IMG/VR virus record: IMGVR_UViG_3300046804_004458
Span: 1-64,000 of that record
Origin: a virus
DNA: 64,000 bases
Direction: 5' to 3' (one strand)
Below the pieces are notes generated by a model, which searched no databases, was not told where the DNA came from, and was given only the letters and a program-made list of their open reading frames with translations. Positions within the stretch are counted from its first letter, which is position 1; every line of letters starts with the position of its first letter. Shown here in pieces: positions 1,485 to 64,000 of the stretch. The position numbers were made by a program, and so were the translations under genes.

Positions 1485-2554
1485 GTACAGAGTTTAGCCA
1501 GATTTTACAGGAGATTGAAGCAGGTAAGGAGGGTAGGAATCATAGTATTTCTATGGGATTTACCAAGCTTAACAAGTACATGGGTATAAGAAAAAAGATC
1601 ATGACATTGGTTTTTGGTTCTACTGGCTCAGGTAAGTCAAGTCTTGTGCATGATGCATGGATACTTAATCCATTTGATTGGTATATGGCTAATAAGCACA
1701 GTACTAATCTAAAAATGAAGGTTATCCTGTTTTCATATGAGAGAAGTAAGATCTATACTAAAACCAAGTGGCTATCCAGGAAAATCTTTAAAGACCATGG
1801 TATACTAATACCTATAGGAAAAATGTTAGGTTGGTGGGCTAATAATAAGCTAAATCTTGATGAGCATGATTTGATAATGATGTATGAAGACTACATCAAT
1901 GAGCTATGTGAGTTTGTGATTATCAAGGAAGGAGCTGATAATCCTACGGGCTCTTATAAGTTTATGAAGAAGTTTGCTGAGGAGAGGGGTAAAATAGAGC
2001 AGGTGTCTGAGTACAATAAGGTGTATATCCCCAACAATCCTTATGAGCTGGTAATACCTATAGTGGATCACATTGGCCTAGTGAGAATGGAAAGAGGGTA
2101 TACTACCAAAAAAGAAGCTATTGACAAGCTCACAGAATATGCCCAGGAATGGAGGGACTTCTTTGGCTATACACCTGTGTTTGTAGCACAGATAACCAGA
2201 GAATTGGGCAGTGTACAGTACCAGAAAATGGATTCTTTTGAGCCTACAGTAGACCAGATAAAAGAATCAGGTGCACCGGGTGAAGCAGCAGATGTTATCC
2301 TTAGTCTTTTTGACCCACTAAGATACAATACTACTGTACCTGGGTATGATGCAAACAAATTTGTAAACAAAGATACAGGTGCTAAGCATTTTAGGAGTGT
2401 AAAAATCCTGAAGAATACCTATGGAGAAGATTCTATAAGAGTAGGTTGTGCTTTTCAGGGAGCTACAGGTATGTTTAAGGAGCTGCCTCACAAAGACAAA
2501 ATAACAGAAGATGTATATAATTCAGTATTAAGTGGAGCTTATTTTCTACAGTAA
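1481..2554 (+). CDS. dnaB: DnaB-like replicative helicase
   Basis: Walker A GSTGSGKS, FSYE, Walker B IVDHI, VAQITR, IKESG..GEAAD, ILKN. Confidence 0.88.
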   Translation: MSTEFSQILQEIEAGKEGRNHSISMGFTKLNKYMGIRKKIMTLVFGSTGSGKSSLVHDAWILNPFDWYMANKHSTNLKMKVILFSYERSKIYTKTKWLSRKIFKDHGILIPIGKMLGWWANNKLNLDEHDLIMMYEDYINELCEFVIIKEGADNPTGSYKFMKKFAEERGKIEQVSEYNKVYIPNNPYELVIPIVDHIGLVRMERGYTTKKEAIDKLTEYAQEWRDFFGYTPVFVAQITRELGSVQYQKMDSFEPTVDQIKESGAPGEAADVILSLFDPLRYNTTVPGYDANKFVNKDTGAKHFRSVKILKNTYGEDSIRVGCAFQGATGMFKELPHKDKITEDVYNSVLSGAYFLQ

Positions 2555-2569
2555 AAAACAACACAACAT

Positions 2570-3370
2570 ATGAGTGAAACAAAAAGTGGTGCAGAGAAGA
2601 AAGGTATAATTCTCCCCACAACAGTACAGAAAGCAAAAACAGTAAATCCAAAAACTCTTGTCTTGTATGGCAAGCCTAAGACAGGTAAGACAACTGCTCT
2701 ATCAAAATTAAACAACTGTTTAATTATTGATGTAGAAAATGGTAGTGCATTTATTGATGGTATGATTATGCAGCCACCTGAGAATGCAGGCCCTGTGTCA
2801 AGATTTAAATGGTTAAAGGAGCTTGCAGCTACTATTAAAGAAGCAGGTAAGCCCTATGATTATGTAGCCATTGACACATTATCACAGCTTGATATGGATG
2901 CTGAGTGGGTTGGTACTTGGAATTATATGAACTCTATTACAGGTAAGAAATTTAACAGGGATGAGAATGGGCAAATAATAAAACCTTCTGATCCTAATTA
3001 TCAAAGTGTATTAACTCTTGGAAATGGTTATGGTTACAGGTATACCAGAGAAGCTATTATGGATATATATGAAAGTCTTAAAGATTTGGGTAGAGTATGT
3101 ACCATATTTGTTTGCCATGTAGCAGATAAAATGGTAGCAAGTAAGAATGGTGAAGAAGTAATGGTAAAGGATTTAGCATTAGTTGGTAAGACAAGAGATA
3201 TTATACCAAGGTTATGTGATGCAATAGCCAATGTATGGAATGAAGAAGGGGAACTGATGATTTCTTTTATAGGTGATAACCAAAAGATAGGTGGTGTAAG
3301 GGCTAGACACCTGTTAGGGTTTAGTGGTAAATTAAACTGGGACAGTATATTTATTAAAACAGAAGATTAA
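2570..3370 (+). CDS. AAA_24 / Sak4-like P-loop ATPase
   Basis: LYGKPKTGKTT, IIDVENGS, VAIDTLS, FVCH. Confidence 0.8.
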   Translation: MSETKSGAEKKGIILPTTVQKAKTVNPKTLVLYGKPKTGKTTALSKLNNCLIIDVENGSAFIDGMIMQPPENAGPVSRFKWLKELAATIKEAGKPYDYVAIDTLSQLDMDAEWVGTWNYMNSITGKKFNRDENGQIIKPSDPNYQSVLTLGNGYGYRYTREAIMDIYESLKDLGRVCTIFVCHVADKMVASKNGEEVMVKDLALVGKTRDIIPRLCDAIANVWNEEGELMISFIGDNQKIGGVRARHLLGFSGKLNWDSIFIKTED

Positions 3371-3406
3371 AATAACAAAAACTAGTAACAACTAAAAAAT
3401 AATTGT

Positions 3407-4351
3407 ATGATCTTAACTAAAAGTGAAGTAAAAAGCAGCAATAATTCTAAAATTGGCTTCTTTAAAGGCAAACCATTATGTGTTAATCCTACCAGACAAC
3501 AGCTATCTGAAATCTTAGGTTTTGAAAACAATGAAGAAAAAGGAGAGTTCTCTTATTCAGGTACAACAAAAACAGGAGATGATTATGTAAAGATTAAGTT
3601 CTGGCTTGAAGCTGACACAAAAGACAAGTTTCCTGTAGAGTTTATGCTTATCAACAAGCCTGCAGCAAATAAAGGTGGTGATAAAGTACAATATGTAAAT
3701 CAAACAGGTATAAACCAATATGCTGAGTCTGAAGATAAACTGTGGGAAAGTTTTAAGTTTTATACGGAGAAAGACAAAGATGATAAGACCAAATGGGTAA
3801 ATATAGCACCATGTGCATTTAGGCCAGCTATTCAGGGTGAGGCTTCTTTGTATACTTTCATGAGGGCTATGTTTGGATGTGAAGGTAATGACTGGAAACA
3901 ATCCAAAGTAAACTTTTACTATGACAAAAAGAAGAATGCAGATGAGCAGAATAGTATCTTTTTAGATATAAAAAAGCTGTTTGCAAACCCTGATAAGTAT
4001 ATAAATGACAATATTGGATCTTTAATTAGGGCCTCTAAAGAAGAGAGTATTATAGGTGATGTTGTATGTCTTGCTACTGTGAAAATGGATGATGACAATA
4101 AGAACTACCAGAAAATTTATGGTGGATTTATGTCCGGCTATATGATGAAGCAGGTAAACATAGGCATTACAACTGGTGCTTTTACAGGTAATACTTTCTT
4201 AAAGAAGTGGAAAGAAAGCTTTGATAAGTGGAATTACAAAGAAGCAACTGTTCTTGGTGCTCTTCAACCATTTGATCCAGATACATACAAGCCAGCAATT
4301 AATGAGCTTATACAAGTAGAAGATACACCTGTAGATGATACAGACTTTTAA
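3407..4351 (+). CDS. Putative single-stranded DNA-binding protein
   Basis: Follows the Sak4-like gene and has an acidic tail ending DDTDF. CVNPT motif as recalled from crAss-like SSB candidates. Confidence 0.5.
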   Translation: MILTKSEVKSSNNSKIGFFKGKPLCVNPTRQQLSEILGFENNEEKGEFSYSGTTKTGDDYVKIKFWLEADTKDKFPVEFMLINKPAANKGGDKVQYVNQTGINQYAESEDKLWESFKFYTEKDKDDKTKWVNIAPCAFRPAIQGEASLYTFMRAMFGCEGNDWKQSKVNFYYDKKKNADEQNSIFLDIKKLFANPDKYINDNIGSLIRASKEESIIGDVVCLATVKMDDDNKNYQKIYGGFMSGYMMKQVNIGITTGAFTGNTFLKKWKESFDKWNYKEATVLGALQPFDPDTYKPAINELIQVEDTPVDDTDF

Positions 4352-4369
4352 TTTTTTATTCACAACCTA

Positions 4370-4400
4370 GGGAGAGGTGTAACAGCCTCTCCCATTTTTA
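4370..4400 (+). terminator. Intrinsic terminator
   Basis: GGGAGAGG-loop-CCTCTCCC followed by ATTTTT. Confidence 0.8.
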
Positions 4401-4420
4401 ATTTTTAAATTTAAAAAACA

Positions 4421-4699
4421 ATGATAACAAAAGCTAATTTGGTAGCAGTAGAAAATGAAGGATTAATCATTTTGTTAAATGAGGAAGTTCTTATCATGTG
4501 TTTTAATTATTTCTATGCTGGAATATTGGTAGGGGTAAATGACAAATACATAAAATTAAAAAACTGCCATATTGTATATGAAACTGGTGAATGGTCGGCA
4601 AAGAACTATAAAGATGCTCAAAAGGTATCAGAAGAGCACTATATTCAACTCTCATCAATAGAAAGCTACACTAAAACATCAAAATTAAAATTAAAATAG
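4421..4699 (+). CDS. Small beta-rich, putative Sm-like phage protein
   Basis: NYFYAGILVGVNDKYIKLKNCHIVYETG...IQLSSIES has Sm1/Sm2-like spacing. Directly precedes the (Ser-X)n ORF. Confidence 0.55.
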   Translation: MITKANLVAVENEGLIILLNEEVLIMCFNYFYAGILVGVNDKYIKLKNCHIVYETGEWSAKNYKDAQKVSEEHYIQLSSIESYTKTSKLKLK

Positions 4700-4700
4700 T

Positions 4701-4865
4701 ATGGTAAATCAACCACATAGCAGACTGGAAAGAGGGTCTGTGTCATGTTCAGGGTCAGGGTCGGTGTCATGTTCATGGTCAAAGTCATGGTCAGGGTCGG
4801 TGTCATGTTCATGGTCAAAGTCATGGTCAGGGTCAATGTCATGGTCATGGTCAATAGCACTATAA
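4701..4865 (+). CDS. 54-aa (Ser-X)n repeat micro-protein (missing from ORF track)
   Basis: MVNQPHSRLERGSVSCSGSGSVSCSWSKSWSGSVSCSWSKSWSGSMSWSWSIAL*. ATG is 1 nt after the upstream stop. Confidence 0.7.
   Translation: MVNQPHSRLERGSVSCSGSGSVSCSWSKSWSGSVSCSWSKSWSGSMSWSWSIAL
4737..4853. repeat. Hexamer-period TCN-NNN array with a 36-bp duplication
   Basis: tca/tcg codon every 6 nt. The unit GGTCAGGGTCGGTGTCATGTTCATGGTCAAAGTCAT occurs twice in tandem. Confidence 0.9.
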
Positions 4866-4899
4866 TATTATTTTTTAATCTTTAAACAAACAAAATAGA

Positions 4900-5244
4900 A
4901 TGAATACAGAATCAGTATTTCCAGCAAGTTTAGACACAGTTTCACCAGAAGAATTAGCAACCACAATAGCTAGTGTAATTATGGGTACAGAGAATGCACC
5001 TATTGAGAAGAAAACAAGGCAACGTAGGATGACAGATGGTAAGGCACCAGTAAAGCTTCAGAGCACTGAAGACTTTATTAAAAACATGCAGGAGAAGATA
5101 GACATGATCCGGATATTGGATGGTGTAACTATGGGGGAAATACCAAATAATATGAGCAAAGCAAACCGGGATATTATAGTAGAGTTCCAAAGGGAGCATG
5201 ATGCACTGGTAAAGAAGTTCATGGAACGTATCCAAAAAGCATAG
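4900..5244 (+). CDS. Hypothetical protein
   Basis: ORF with A-rich leader. Confidence 0.7.
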   Translation: MNTESVFPASLDTVSPEELATTIASVIMGTENAPIEKKTRQRRMTDGKAPVKLQSTEDFIKNMQEKIDMIRILDGVTMGEIPNNMSKANRDIIVEFQREHDALVKKFMERIQKA

Positions 5245-5245
5245 T

Positions 5246-5425
5246 ATGACCAACCGATTAAGTAAGGAAGAATATGATCAGATGGCATCAGAGATTTCTG
5301 GTGCCTCTGTTTCTGTATGGGATGAAGGGTTGGAATGTACTGAAGATGGTATTATACTAGAAACTCTATGGCCAATATTGGATAAGTATTTAAAACCAAA
5401 AGAAAATGGCAAAATATCTGATTGA
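5246..5425 (+). CDS. Small hypothetical protein, 59 aa
   Basis: MTNRLSKEEYDQ...ISD*. Fills the gap between neighbours with coupled start/stop. Confidence 0.6.
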   Translation: MTNRLSKEEYDQMASEISGASVSVWDEGLECTEDGIILETLWPILDKYLKPKENGKISD

Positions 5426-5873
5426 AGTAGAAGTAAATGAAGATAAACTACGTAGATACAATGATATAGATGTAGGTGAAGAAAATGAGTATGAACAGAG
5501 TGTAGATTCTCTTATAATGCAAGAAATGGGTTGGACAGAAGAATCTGGTATTTACGTAACCTCTGTAAAAGAAGTAGAATCAGATGTTACTGGTAAATAC
5601 CAAGTACCAAAAGATGTATGGGAATTTGTGTCACAATACTATCCTGATTATTATCACTCTAATGAAATAGCACAGGAAGGTGATTTACATAAACTTGTAG
5701 AGAAAGACTACGAAGAAGGTGATTGTGCTGATAAATTGTTGAAGGATGAATATGGTGGAGATATTGATAATCCTCAAATATTTACTGATTGGGAAGCAGC
5801 TAATCGTGATATACTGGAAAAAGCAATTGAGGGATATATTGAATCACTAAAAGGAAAAAGTGAAAATGGTTAG
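5406..5873 (+). CDS. Acidic hypothetical protein
   Basis: ORF in a tightly packed operon. Confidence 0.7.
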   Translation: MAKYLIEVEVNEDKLRRYNDIDVGEENEYEQSVDSLIMQEMGWTEESGIYVTSVKEVESDVTGKYQVPKDVWEFVSQYYPDYYHSNEIAQEGDLHKLVEKDYEEGDCADKLLKDEYGGDIDNPQIFTDWEAANRDILEKAIEGYIESLKGKSENG

Positions 5874-6126
5874 TAGCAAGACAGAGTATAAGACAATAGA
5901 TGTTGAAGGCCTTGCAACAGCTTTAGCTGAGGAAGCCTGGAAAGAAGATACAAAAAATGTTCATGTGTCAGATCTTTATGATATTGAAAGTTATGTGGAT
6001 ACAGATGGACAAATAAGGGTAAAAAAAGAAGTAAAACCGTACTGGGCAAATAACTTTTTTGACATAAAAGAGAATTATTTTATGTTAATTTGTCAATTCA
6101 TTAAGAAAGAAGAAAAGGAAAAGTAA
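5860..6126 (+). CDS. Hypothetical protein
   Basis: Overlapping operon ORF. True start may be ATG 5866. Confidence 0.6.
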   Translation: MKMVSSKTEYKTIDVEGLATALAEEAWKEDTKNVHVSDLYDIESYVDTDGQIRVKKEVKPYWANNFFDIKENYFMLICQFIKKEEKEK

Positions 6127-6136
6127 AAACCATCAT

Positions 6137-7123
6137 ATGCAACTGGAAAAAAGAAAGCCAGTAATACAAATTGAGGACATCTTTGCTAAAACAGATGACT
6201 ACTCCATATACAGGTATTACCTGGGAGAGTTTAAGGTCAATGGGAACATAAGTAGTCCATTTAGGAAAGATAATAATCCTTCTTTTGGTATTTACATGAA
6301 AGATGGCCGGTTATTTCATAATGATATGGGGGATGCTGCTTACCATGGTGATTGCATAGCATTAGTACAGCAGTTATTTAATATTAGTTACCTCGAAGCT
6401 ATCCAAAAAATAGCCAAAGACTTTGGTATTAGTAATACAGGTGTAGATTGCTGTAGTAGGATTGTAAAGTATACAAAACCTGTATTAGAACAAAAAAGAT
6501 ATACAGTTATCAGATGTACTGTCAAAAGTAAGTTTACAAAAGCAGAGATTGAGTATTGGGCTTCTTTTGGTATTACACCTGAAGAGTGTAAAAAAGAAGA
6601 TATCTATGCTATAAAAGAATGGACACTTAATGGGTATAAACAAGAGATTAAAAAGGGGGAACTATGCTTTGGTTATCTGTTTCCAGGTATAGGATGGAAG
6701 ATTTATAAGCCATTAGCAAGTAAAGAAGATAAGTGGAAAAGTAATATTGACATGACTCTGGTGGAGAATAAATGCTCTATACCTGGTGCCAGTAAAGTAT
6801 TAGTTACTAAAGCAAGGAAAGACAGAGTTATACTCAGTAAACTCTTACCTGAATGGGCAGTAGTTAATGTGCAGAATGAGTCAGAACTTTGTTATACTAA
6901 AGAGTTTGTAGAGATGTTGCAAGGCAAAGAGGTAGTGGTAAATTATGACTGTGACCCAGCAGGTAAGAAAGCAAGTTTATTAGTAACAAAAAAGTATGGA
7001 TTTAGGCACATTAATGTACCTGATAAATATTTAGAAGAAGGAATAAAGGATTTGGCAGATCTTTATAAAAAATATGGCCCAGATCCAATAATAACACATT
7101 TCAAAAACAAACAGTTAATATAA
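6137..7123 (+). CDS. dnaG: DNA primase (degenerate Zn-finger-like N-domain plus TOPRIM)
   Basis: SSPFRKDNNPSF, GDCIALVQQL, TKARKD, QNE, NYDCDPAG, KDLAD. Confidence 0.85.
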   Translation: MQLEKRKPVIQIEDIFAKTDDYSIYRYYLGEFKVNGNISSPFRKDNNPSFGIYMKDGRLFHNDMGDAAYHGDCIALVQQLFNISYLEAIQKIAKDFGISNTGVDCCSRIVKYTKPVLEQKRYTVIRCTVKSKFTKAEIEYWASFGITPEECKKEDIYAIKEWTLNGYKQEIKKGELCFGYLFPGIGWKIYKPLASKEDKWKSNIDMTLVENKCSIPGASKVLVTKARKDRVILSKLLPEWAVVNVQNESELCYTKEFVEMLQGKEVVVNYDCDPAGKKASLLVTKKYGFRHINVPDKYLEEGIKDLADLYKKYGPDPIITHFKNKQLI

Positions 7124-24811: not shown

Positions 24812-25507
24812 TTATTTTTTAAAATAATAAGTATGTACCATATCAGCAGCTATTCCTAATACAGCTACTATAAGACCACCCTCTATAAAAGACCTTGTTG
24901 AAACATATTTAGTTCTTCTCTCTTCTCTGTCTAATTTATATTTATAGTCCTCTACTCTCATTTCCATAGTAGTTTTGTATAAATCAAATTTACCCTGAGT
25001 TTCTGCTTTTGTAAGATCAACTTTAATTCTTTCAAAGTTAAGCCGATCATTCATAGCTTTTATAGTATCTTCTAAACTTTTACTTTTTAAAATAAGTTTT
25101 TCACTTTTTTCAGAAAGTAGTTTTAAGCTGCCTTCATAATCTTTATTTTTTATGTAAATAGCATTGCTGTAATCTGTCAAAAAGGAATTAGCTTCCGTAA
25201 GAGTATCTATTTTTTTATTTGCAGCCTTTATGTCTTCTTTAAACATTAAAAACTTCTTGTTCATGTCCTTTCCCTGTTGCACAGTCATTACAACTACTGT
25301 ATCCCCATCCAATACTTTAACCAAAGGATATTGAGATGGAGGTGGTGGAGGAACAGGTACAAGCTGTTGATTAGTTACCTGTGGGCTTACAGCTACATTA
25401 TTCGTCTGAGGTACCTGGTTTACTGTTGTCTGACTGACTGACTGGCAATAAGTTAAATGGCTTATTAACACGAACAACAGTGTCCCCAAGCTTGGCTTTA
25501 AGTTCAT
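24812..25507 (-). CDS. Exported coiled-coil protein, spanin-like
   Basis: Signal peptide, poly-Pro, coiled coil and C-terminal hydrophobic segment. Overlaps the lipoprotein gene. Confidence 0.5.
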   Translation of the reverse strand: MNLKPSLGTLLFVLISHLTYCQSVSQTTVNQVPQTNNVAVSPQVTNQQLVPVPPPPPSQYPLVKVLDGDTVVVMTVQQGKDMNKKFLMFKEDIKAANKKIDTLTEANSFLTDYSNAIYIKNKDYEGSLKLLSEKSEKLILKSKSLEDTIKAMNDRLNFERIKVDLTKAETQGKFDLYKTTMEMRVEDYKYKLDREERRTKYVSTRSFIEGGLIVAVLGIAADMVHTYYFKK

Positions 25508-63999: not shown

Positions 64000-64000
64000 A

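Follow-up and report, generated by a model that had tools for sequence, protein, structure and literature searches.

A putative two-gene phage module of an Sm/LSm-fold protein and a coupled serine-alternating micro-protein

Near the start of a viral DNA stretch (referred to here as the window, i.e. the 64,000 nucleotides from position 1 to position 64,000 of IMG/VR record IMGVR_UViG_3300046804_004458), a short gene (gene A) was followed by an even shorter open reading frame (the micro-ORF) that placed serine at every second position, and the question raised by this locus was whether such a simple-sequence frame is a gene at all and, if so, what it would do beside its partner. The source record was 79.6 kb in length with an estimated completeness of 62%. 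The features of the locus and of the surrounding replication module were as follows:

1-891: DNA polymerase, replication module
1481-2554: DnaB-like helicase, replication module
2570-3370: Sak4-like protein, replication module
4370-4402, plus strand: terminator-like hairpin (4370-4393) plus T run, closing the upstream gene for a 314-aa protein
4395-4409, plus strand: left copy of a 15-bp direct repeat, TTTTTAATNTTTAAA, bracketing the two-gene block
4403-4879, plus strand: 477-bp block (gene A plus micro-ORF), an indel cassette missing from the three closest relatives
4421-4699, plus strand: gene A, 92 aa, ATG at 4421 and TAG at 4697-4699; predicted Sm/LSm fold, virus-only family
4701-4865, plus strand: micro-ORF, 54 aa, ATG at 4701 and TAA at 4863-4865
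4733-4855, plus strand: hexamer array with the NGG-TCN unit of the family, the coding body of the micro-ORF
4872-4886, plus strand: second (right-hand) copy of the 15-bp direct repeat; the A-rich leader of the 114-aa gene comes next
4900-5244: next gene downstream, 114 aa, preceded by an A/T-rich leader
6137-7123: primase, replication module

A single nucleotide, T4700, was the sole spacer between the gene A stop and the micro-ORF ATG. The micro-ORF product opened with the 12-residue leader MVNQPHSRLERG, continued as (Ser-X)20-Ser, and closed with IAL; Ser occupied 21 alternate positions across residues 13-53 (nt 4737-4853), and X was W (six times), G (four), V (three), C (three), K (two), M (one), and I (one). 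The hexamer array was the only strong tandem repeat within the 64-kb window: Tandem Repeats Finder resolved 4749-4854 into 2.9 copies of a 36-bp period (a unit of six hexamers) at 94% matches, and a substructure of 18, 12, and 6 nt was discernible from 4733 on. The upstream hairpin at 4370-4393 had a 9-bp stem with six GC pairs and ran into ATTTTTAAT. The layout given by the original prediction was thus recovered, namely (i) a 54-aa Ser-alternating ORF, present with its 21 alternate Ser residues, (ii) a hexamer array with a 36-bp duplication, here amounting to 2.9 copies, and (iii) a unit placed between a terminator (the hairpin) and an AT-rich spacer (the leader of the 114-aa gene). A search of the protein database with the 54-aa peptide returned no match; being missing from that database, the micro-ORF had not been called as a gene.

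Gene A belonged to a large family: 370 relatives were found in a 90%-clustered protein collection, at least 500 representatives of 50%-identity clusters matched at E ≤ 1e-3 (325 at E ≤ 1e-10), and 298 relatives were found among IMG/VR contigs. The closest relatives (P0002-P0006) were 86-89% identical, and the Atlas clusters nearest to gene A were 96-100% viral. A pattern scan of cellular genomes, covering one genome per prokaryotic species, gave two false positives only, both KaiC/RecA-like ATPases that shared the string FCMNYIYAG and carried no array. Megablast of window positions 3400-6200 against GenBank phages returned nothing, as did single-protein scans of viral and metagenome contigs for a close relative, and no cultured phage carrying the module was found. 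Some family members were tandem two-domain chains (P0127, P0130, and P0212; 186-218 aa).

The original prediction had called gene A an Sm-like beta protein, and structural modelling agreed. Its AlphaFold2 model (pLDDT 88.6) contained a helical turn at residues 16-18 and five strands (22-27, 31-39, 43-52, 67-76, and 80-85), so that in its predicted form gene A has the Sm fold, i.e. a short N-terminal helix plus a strongly bent five-stranded antiparallel sheet. The best Foldseek matches to this model were all Sm/LSm proteins (TM-score up to 0.84, normalised by target length), and VIA-align superposed it on Sm, LSm, SmAP, and Hfq chains at Z 10.3 to 7.3 with near-full target coverage (65-74 residues of 68-76-residue chains); the best match was 6ppv_A (Z 10.3, rmsd 2.4, 67/69 residues), and the top 17 rows were Sm, LSm, or SmAP throughout. 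Sequence models gave a different picture: no Pfam family was matched by gene A at E ≤ 0.1 and no PHROG family, the LSM (PF01423), Hfq, and Phage_Hfq models found no match among 42 gene A homologues at E ≤ 1, the gene A profile had 0 matches to PDB sequences at E ≤ 10, and the Atlas offered LSM (0.83) and Phage_Hfq (0.81) as sub-threshold leads only. The term 'Sm-like' is thus right for the fold, with no family membership recovered by sequence.

In an alignment judged by eye, G34-x-L36-x-G38-V39-N40 was invariant and Sm1-like, and the turn between strands 4 and 5 read Y-[IV]-Q-x-x-x-I-E-S, where Arg-Gly was not seen; as read from this alignment, gene A appeared to lack the canonical Sm2 Arg-Gly as well as the Asn of the Sm uridine pocket, which counts against the preferred reading set out below. 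Conservation peaked elsewhere, in the long loop IVYETG...KDAQK that links strands 3 and 4. The tandem two-domain versions fit a side-by-side self-association of the gene A domain; with these chains hinting at oligomers, the gene A protein would probably be an oligomer and may form a hexameric or heptameric ring.

Of 80 viral loci, 77 had a hexamer array that started 20-45 nt past the stop of their gene A homologue, built from GGTCNN in most of them and from GGAGCN in eight. Two of the three array-less exceptions were cut by the contig end, and the third (L035) appeared to retain no more than a collapsed remnant, a leader and two units before a stop. The window-type layout (gene A, a start at its stop, and a Ser-X array) was present in 58 of 60 non-redundant loci and in the window itself, with TAG at 4697-4699, ATG at 4701, and Ser at 21 alternate positions. 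Apart from this pair, no gene family of the neighbourhood was common to more than 8 of 64 non-redundant loci. The pairing of gene A and array is therefore beyond chance, and the two genes behaved as an autonomous two-gene unit, which had no widely shared neighbour family and was gained or lost as one block in the window lineage (see below). The proposal to look downstream of gene A homologues for dipeptide-repeat ORFs was in this way answered by the 77 array-bearing loci, and the two-gene unit claimed for the window was upheld. Repeats of the SWSRS type, ascribed in the original prediction to other phages, turned up in many of them, and the GYGDG-type tails named along with them were seen in none of the 80 loci.

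Further variants of the pair were observed. In L085 (MW202825.1, a GenBank metagenomic phage), positions 3932-4547 held a gene A homologue that carried no annotation and, after it, a tandem pair of Ser-X ORFs. Both of these ORFs ended in SGGMK and an ATGA overlap linked them; only the second was annotated, as hypothetical. In L093 (13091-13420, minus strand), a barrel protein of 110 aa that is divergent but matches the gene A family at hhalign E 7e-5 was ATGA-coupled to a (Ser-Trp/Gly/Arg/Lys)n ORF, so the module reaches beyond the family detectable by sequence; a search of viral contigs for SWSKSW, as DNA, had a single match, which was this divergent module and not a close relative. Among longer proteins searched for a fusion of gene A to a Ser-X tail, only N-terminally extended or tandem-domain proteins were found.

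Whether the micro-ORF is translated could not be read from its openness: TCN and NGG cannot be stops, so an open Ser frame inside the array is uninformative, and two other frames of the window were open through the array as well. Frame-specific signals were found in the family comparison. Among 62 non-redundant loci, 50 had a Ser-frame ATG within -10 to +15 of the gene A stop, as against 1/62 and 0/62 in the other two frames; with GTG and TTG included, Ser-frame starts were found in 55 of 62 loci, and about 20 loci had an ATGA overlap at the gene A stop. Relative to gene A, the Ser frame could be any of the three frames, depending on the locus. Ser stood at 1509 of 1620 alternate positions in the family arrays, encoded by TCN only in 53 arrays and by AGY only in eight. 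Placed on the gene A tree, serine codon type needed 24 changes; the AGC label needed six, at least two of them forced by well-supported branches, as exemplified by L016 (AGC), sister to L045 (TCA) with support 99/87. Replacement of TCN by AGY is explained only by a requirement for serine.

Two additional signals concerned the leader and the array length. In the clade of the window, the leader P-[HQ]-S-[RK]-L was kept through codon changes of AGC/AGT/TCT, AGA/CGA, and CTG/TTA. Between loci with identical or near-identical gene A, arrays differed in length by -12, -27, 18, 84, -24, 27, 0, 51, and -30 nt; every one of these net differences was divisible by 3, though not every one by 6. Taken together, the start codons, the switches of serine codon, and the conserved leader argue that the micro-ORF is coding, and on this comparative evidence it is a real gene, translationally coupled to gene A and usually encoding (Ser-Gly/Arg/Trp)n. 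The original prediction of a coupled micro-protein gene with its Ser frame conserved in homologues was thereby supported, by the ATG counts (50/62 versus 1 and 0) and by Ser at 1509/1620 positions. Other candidate frames were set aside. A minus-strand 64-aa ORF (4666-4860) was rejected together with the Val/Met frame (4745-4885), since antisense frames were often open and their residue pairs differed by locus. The remaining plus-strand frames, among them one reading Gly-X (GGT CNN or GGA GCN), were without start codons.

The same data bear on the reading in which the array acts as nucleic acid and the ORF is incidental, with GGUC in RNA or GGTC in DNA serving as sites for the Sm-like protein, either in autoregulation or as a set of iterons resembling an origin. 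NGG and TC varied far less than amino-acid needs alone would demand, the TCN-type arrays folded more stably than shuffles (mean z -3.9), and the window copy sat within a replication module, all of which would suit this reading. TRAP, a small oligomeric beta protein with evenly spaced (G/U)AG repeat RNA, is an analogy for it and for no other reading considered here, but the evidence on the phage array points to a coding array, not a binding array. A nucleic-acid role would leave unexplained why only the Ser frame has a start codon placed at the gene A stop, why TCN was repeatedly replaced by AGY with Ser kept, why the leader was conserved synonymously, and why length changed in multiples of 3; moreover, antisense frames had no consistent peptide. 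The surplus of RNA structure can be ascribed to GGUC pairing with itself through G-U, but neither the AGY arrays nor the window showed it (z +0.5 in both), and RNA structure was accordingly rejected as a conserved feature. Since the start, serine, leader, and length signals were all frame-specific, the sequence comparison argues against a noncoding iteron or protein-binding array, and this reading was considered very improbable.

Serine codon usage also speaks to a micro-ORF that would sense particular tRNAs during its own translation, like an attenuator leader, and tune neighbouring genes. Each array used essentially one Ser codon plus NGG codons, and a nucleotidyltransferase gene adjoined the module in two loci (annotated as tRNA nucleotidyltransferase in L027), as a sensor might be expected to show; but the Ser codon itself varied between arrays (TCT, TCG, TCA, and AGC), the downstream genes were not conserved, and the constant Sm-like partner would have no explanation, so that this was held to be the least probable of the readings.

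The encoded peptide had a narrow composition across the family. Gly (580), Arg (428), and Trp (418) made up 89% of 1600 X residues, giving peptides of about 50% Ser, 18% Gly (36% of X), and 13% Arg (27% of X), with Ser-X lengths of 13-89 residues (median 65). X codons were almost only NGG (GGG 558 versus GGA 14 and GGT 6). The near-fixed third G can be attributed to homogenisation at the level of the unit together with the need for Trp, since TGA is a stop; its constancy exceeds synonymy alone and leaves room for an extra nucleotide-level constraint. Mean charge was -2.7 for gene A and +10.7 for the peptide, and the two charges did not co-vary (Spearman 0.007).

The window copy departed from this family pattern, in that its X residues were not restricted to Gly/Arg/Trp and it was not strongly basic. 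Its charge of +3 placed it among the three least basic of 62 peptides, its gene A had a charge of 0, and its only two Arg residues were both in the leader and none in the repeat. A charge-driven role is therefore doubtful for the window copy, which could be decaying. The odd X codons (GTG, TGT, AAG, and ATG) each differed from NGG by a single step, and these odd units were multiplied when the 36-bp unit was triplicated; the Arg-poor peptide may be either a recent adaptive variant or the outcome of drift.

Opposite charges and small size invite a comparison with type II toxin-antitoxin pairs, which fits in gene layout and in charge; no toxin or antitoxin family was returned by Pfam and PHROG searches. 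In such a reading, the peptide would be a cationic Trp/Arg-rich effector that hits the host membrane, nucleoid, or ribosome, and gene A would be its keeper, an acidic barrel made first to chaperone, dose, or neutralise it. Two short coupled genes with an acidic upstream product and a very basic downstream one are what this reading would call for; alternate Trp and Arg would share one face of an extended chain, as in the Arg/Trp-rich antimicrobial peptides indolicidin and synthetic (RW)n, and, as a moron would, the unit occurs by itself in varied contexts. The peptide, however, has no hydrophobic or signal segment, half of its residues are Ser and the commonest X is Gly, array length ranges from 13 to 89 residues beside an unchanged partner, and the window copy is barely basic. 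An effector with a keeper was thus judged unlikely.

The composition bears as well on the original suggestion that gene A templates or caps the peptide as a beta-solenoid or amyloid-like fibre. A strand with two faces would follow from the strict two-residue periodicity, and Val, Cys, and Trp are more frequent in the window variant than is usual, but the Arg/Gly/Ser composition of the family favours disorder and charge repulsion, and array length and order were not conserved. In a pseudo-fusion made by reading through the stop of L018 (TGA read as Gly) and folded by AlphaFold2, the tail had pLDDT <50, was unstructured, and contained no strand; the tail was not docked on gene A, which is a weak test made on a monomer only. 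The fibre suggestion consequently found no support in a disorder-like Ser/Gly/Arg/Trp composition and a strandless AlphaFold2 tail, a result that cannot exclude amyloid, and we gave it slight credence, below that of the array acting as nucleic acid.

The peptide had been predicted to be hypervariable, and it was so: identical gene A proteins adjoined arrays that differed in length and order. This observation also suits the peptide as an anti-defence decoy, a possibility raised in the original prediction. In the form considered here, Trp residues along a disordered chain rich in Gly and Ser would hook a host defence protein in an arms race; the nearest parallel is the 'Ago hook' of GW/WG repeats found in GW182 and in silencing suppressors of plant viruses. 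Trp was kept in every array, and its single codon TGG would explain the constant third G of X; the array was hypervariable beside an unchanged partner, presence or absence differed among close relatives, and the genes lay in an early or accessory region. Against this, the reading is pure analogy and slippage alone explains the hypervariability, and we regarded it as improbable, behind an effector with its keeper.

The cassette itself was delimited by comparison with the three closest relatives (L002, L003, and L004), in which the flanking 314-aa protein was 82-83% identical. They also had the terminator-like hairpin, after which the window block began directly, and ran CTCTCCCATTTTTAAT|CTTTAAACAAAC, the 114-aa gene homologue coming directly after this terminator. 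The surplus of the window over these relatives was 477 bases (4403-4879), exactly the two genes. The 15-bp repeat TTTTTAATNTTTAAA was present as one copy in L002-L004 and had five matches in the window with one mismatch allowed (0.47 expected), two of which flanked the block exactly; a further copy was located at 25238-25252. The 15-mer may serve as a promoter or leader element. The block may have arisen in the window lineage either by gain or, in the relatives, been removed by repeat-mediated loss.

The annotated neighbours of the module, in the window and in other phages, were all DNA/RNA-metabolism or modification genes and none was structural. A 237-aa ORF with a GIY-YIG-like N terminus (by eye) lay between the Sak4-like and 314-aa genes of L002 (4252-4965, plus strand) and was missing from the corresponding spot of the window (3370-3407); this L002-specific ORF suggests that the replication module collects small mobile insertions. 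In L005, whose gene A homologue was the closest among the loci examined, an HNH endonuclease gene (1723-2421, plus strand; phrog_99, E 5e-26) lay directly upstream of that homologue, and an HNH endonuclease could be a route of cassette mobility. Elsewhere in the window, the minus strand of 27261-61972 held giant ORFs of 5392, 1960, 1119, 1117, 733, and 1172 aa in a layout that looked crAss-like; a PHROG check of the 1119-, 1117-, 733-, and 1172-aa ORFs gave a match only for the 1172-aa one, a weak 'virion structural protein'.

The reading that we tentatively prefer, at a confidence somewhat short of even, is that gene A and the peptide make up a two-part nucleic-acid-handling complex, most likely acting on RNA early in infection. 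Fold, coupling geometry, coding, composition, linkage, hypervariability, and the indel form its computed basis; from these we infer that gene A would oligomerise and touch the peptide, that nucleic acid would be bound, and when the complex would act. Gene A would give a small Sm/LSm-fold protein that serves as a folded scaffold, probably as an oligomer. Ribosomes finishing gene A would restart at once on the micro-gene, and the two products would be made in step. The micro-gene would give a disordered peptide composed of a short basic leader plus (Ser-X)n, in effect a sticky Arg/Trp tail carried on a separate chain. Repeat slippage would reshuffle the array fast, and selection, in this proposal, would therefore keep its composition rather than its sequence. 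The peptide of the window cassette is a rare Arg-poor, Val/Cys/Lys/Met-containing variant that was recently amplified. The alternatives set out above were ordered as effector with keeper, decoy, nucleic-acid array, fibre, and tRNA sensor. A joint reading, to which we attach very little confidence as a whole, would have the Ser-X peptides as fast-evolving Trp hooks that, whether on or off an Sm-like ring, would block a host machine for defence or RNA decay, with the array as a slippage engine for variants, the Arg-poor Val/Cys/Lys form of the window as an escape form, and the module as a phage counterpart of the plant-virus GW/WG Ago-hook mimics.

The two-part complex that we prefer can be set beside several known systems. 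Among eukaryotic Sm/LSm proteins, SmD1, SmD3, and SmB (Arg-Gly repeats) and LSm4 (an RGG tail) carry basic low-complexity tails within one chain. An Sm-fold domain plus a basic, disordered dipeptide-repeat tail would be common to both, but (i) the phage tail is a separate, translationally coupled gene instead of a C-terminal extension, (ii) its repeat is Ser-X with Trp, not Gly-Arg, and (iii) gene A has no sequence match to LSM models and its host is a phage. Hfq and SmAP rings share with gene A the same small barrel (Z 6.8-9.9) and a short single-domain protein, whereas gene A has no Hfq/LSM profile match, appears from the alignment to lack the Sm2 Arg-Gly, and has the long conserved IVYETG...KDAQK loop.

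The LSm domains of Edc3 and LSm14/Scd6 were among the fold matches of gene A (2vc8_A at Z 8.6, 6y3z_C, 5lop_C, and 6f9w_A), and these domains bind short linear motifs of partner proteins rather than RNA; by analogy, the conserved peptide leader could be such a short linear motif for gene A, although the Edc3 and LSm14/Scd6 domains belong to larger eukaryotic proteins. The Arg/Ser (RS) domains and GW/WG 'Ago-hook' repeats known from eukaryotic and viral proteins are disordered, with Ser or Gly spacers carrying Arg or Trp. The phage repeat differs from them in its period of strictly two residues and its slippage-prone hexamer array, and the phage peptide is standalone, 13-89 residues in length, and almost without Arg in the window copy.

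A full-text literature search that included peptide strings found no published description of this widespread two-gene phage module, a pair that recurs across uncultured phages by the hundreds. New from the window are the 477-bp indel block with its 15-bp direct repeat and the Arg-poor peptide variant. The partner peptide was missed by gene callers and is missing from databases, so that a common phage function has been invisible in annotation. The locus offers a model for proving that a simple-sequence ORF is coding where open frames are uninformative, the usable signals being serine six-codon switches, start-codon placement, and synonymous leader changes, and the presence or absence of the cassette within one phage lineage provides natural isogenic-like pairs. 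If the two products cooperate, this would be the first phage Sm-fold protein with a separate, slippage-diversified low-complexity tail chain, of relevance to RNA chaperoning, condensate-like assemblies, or counter-defence in infection.
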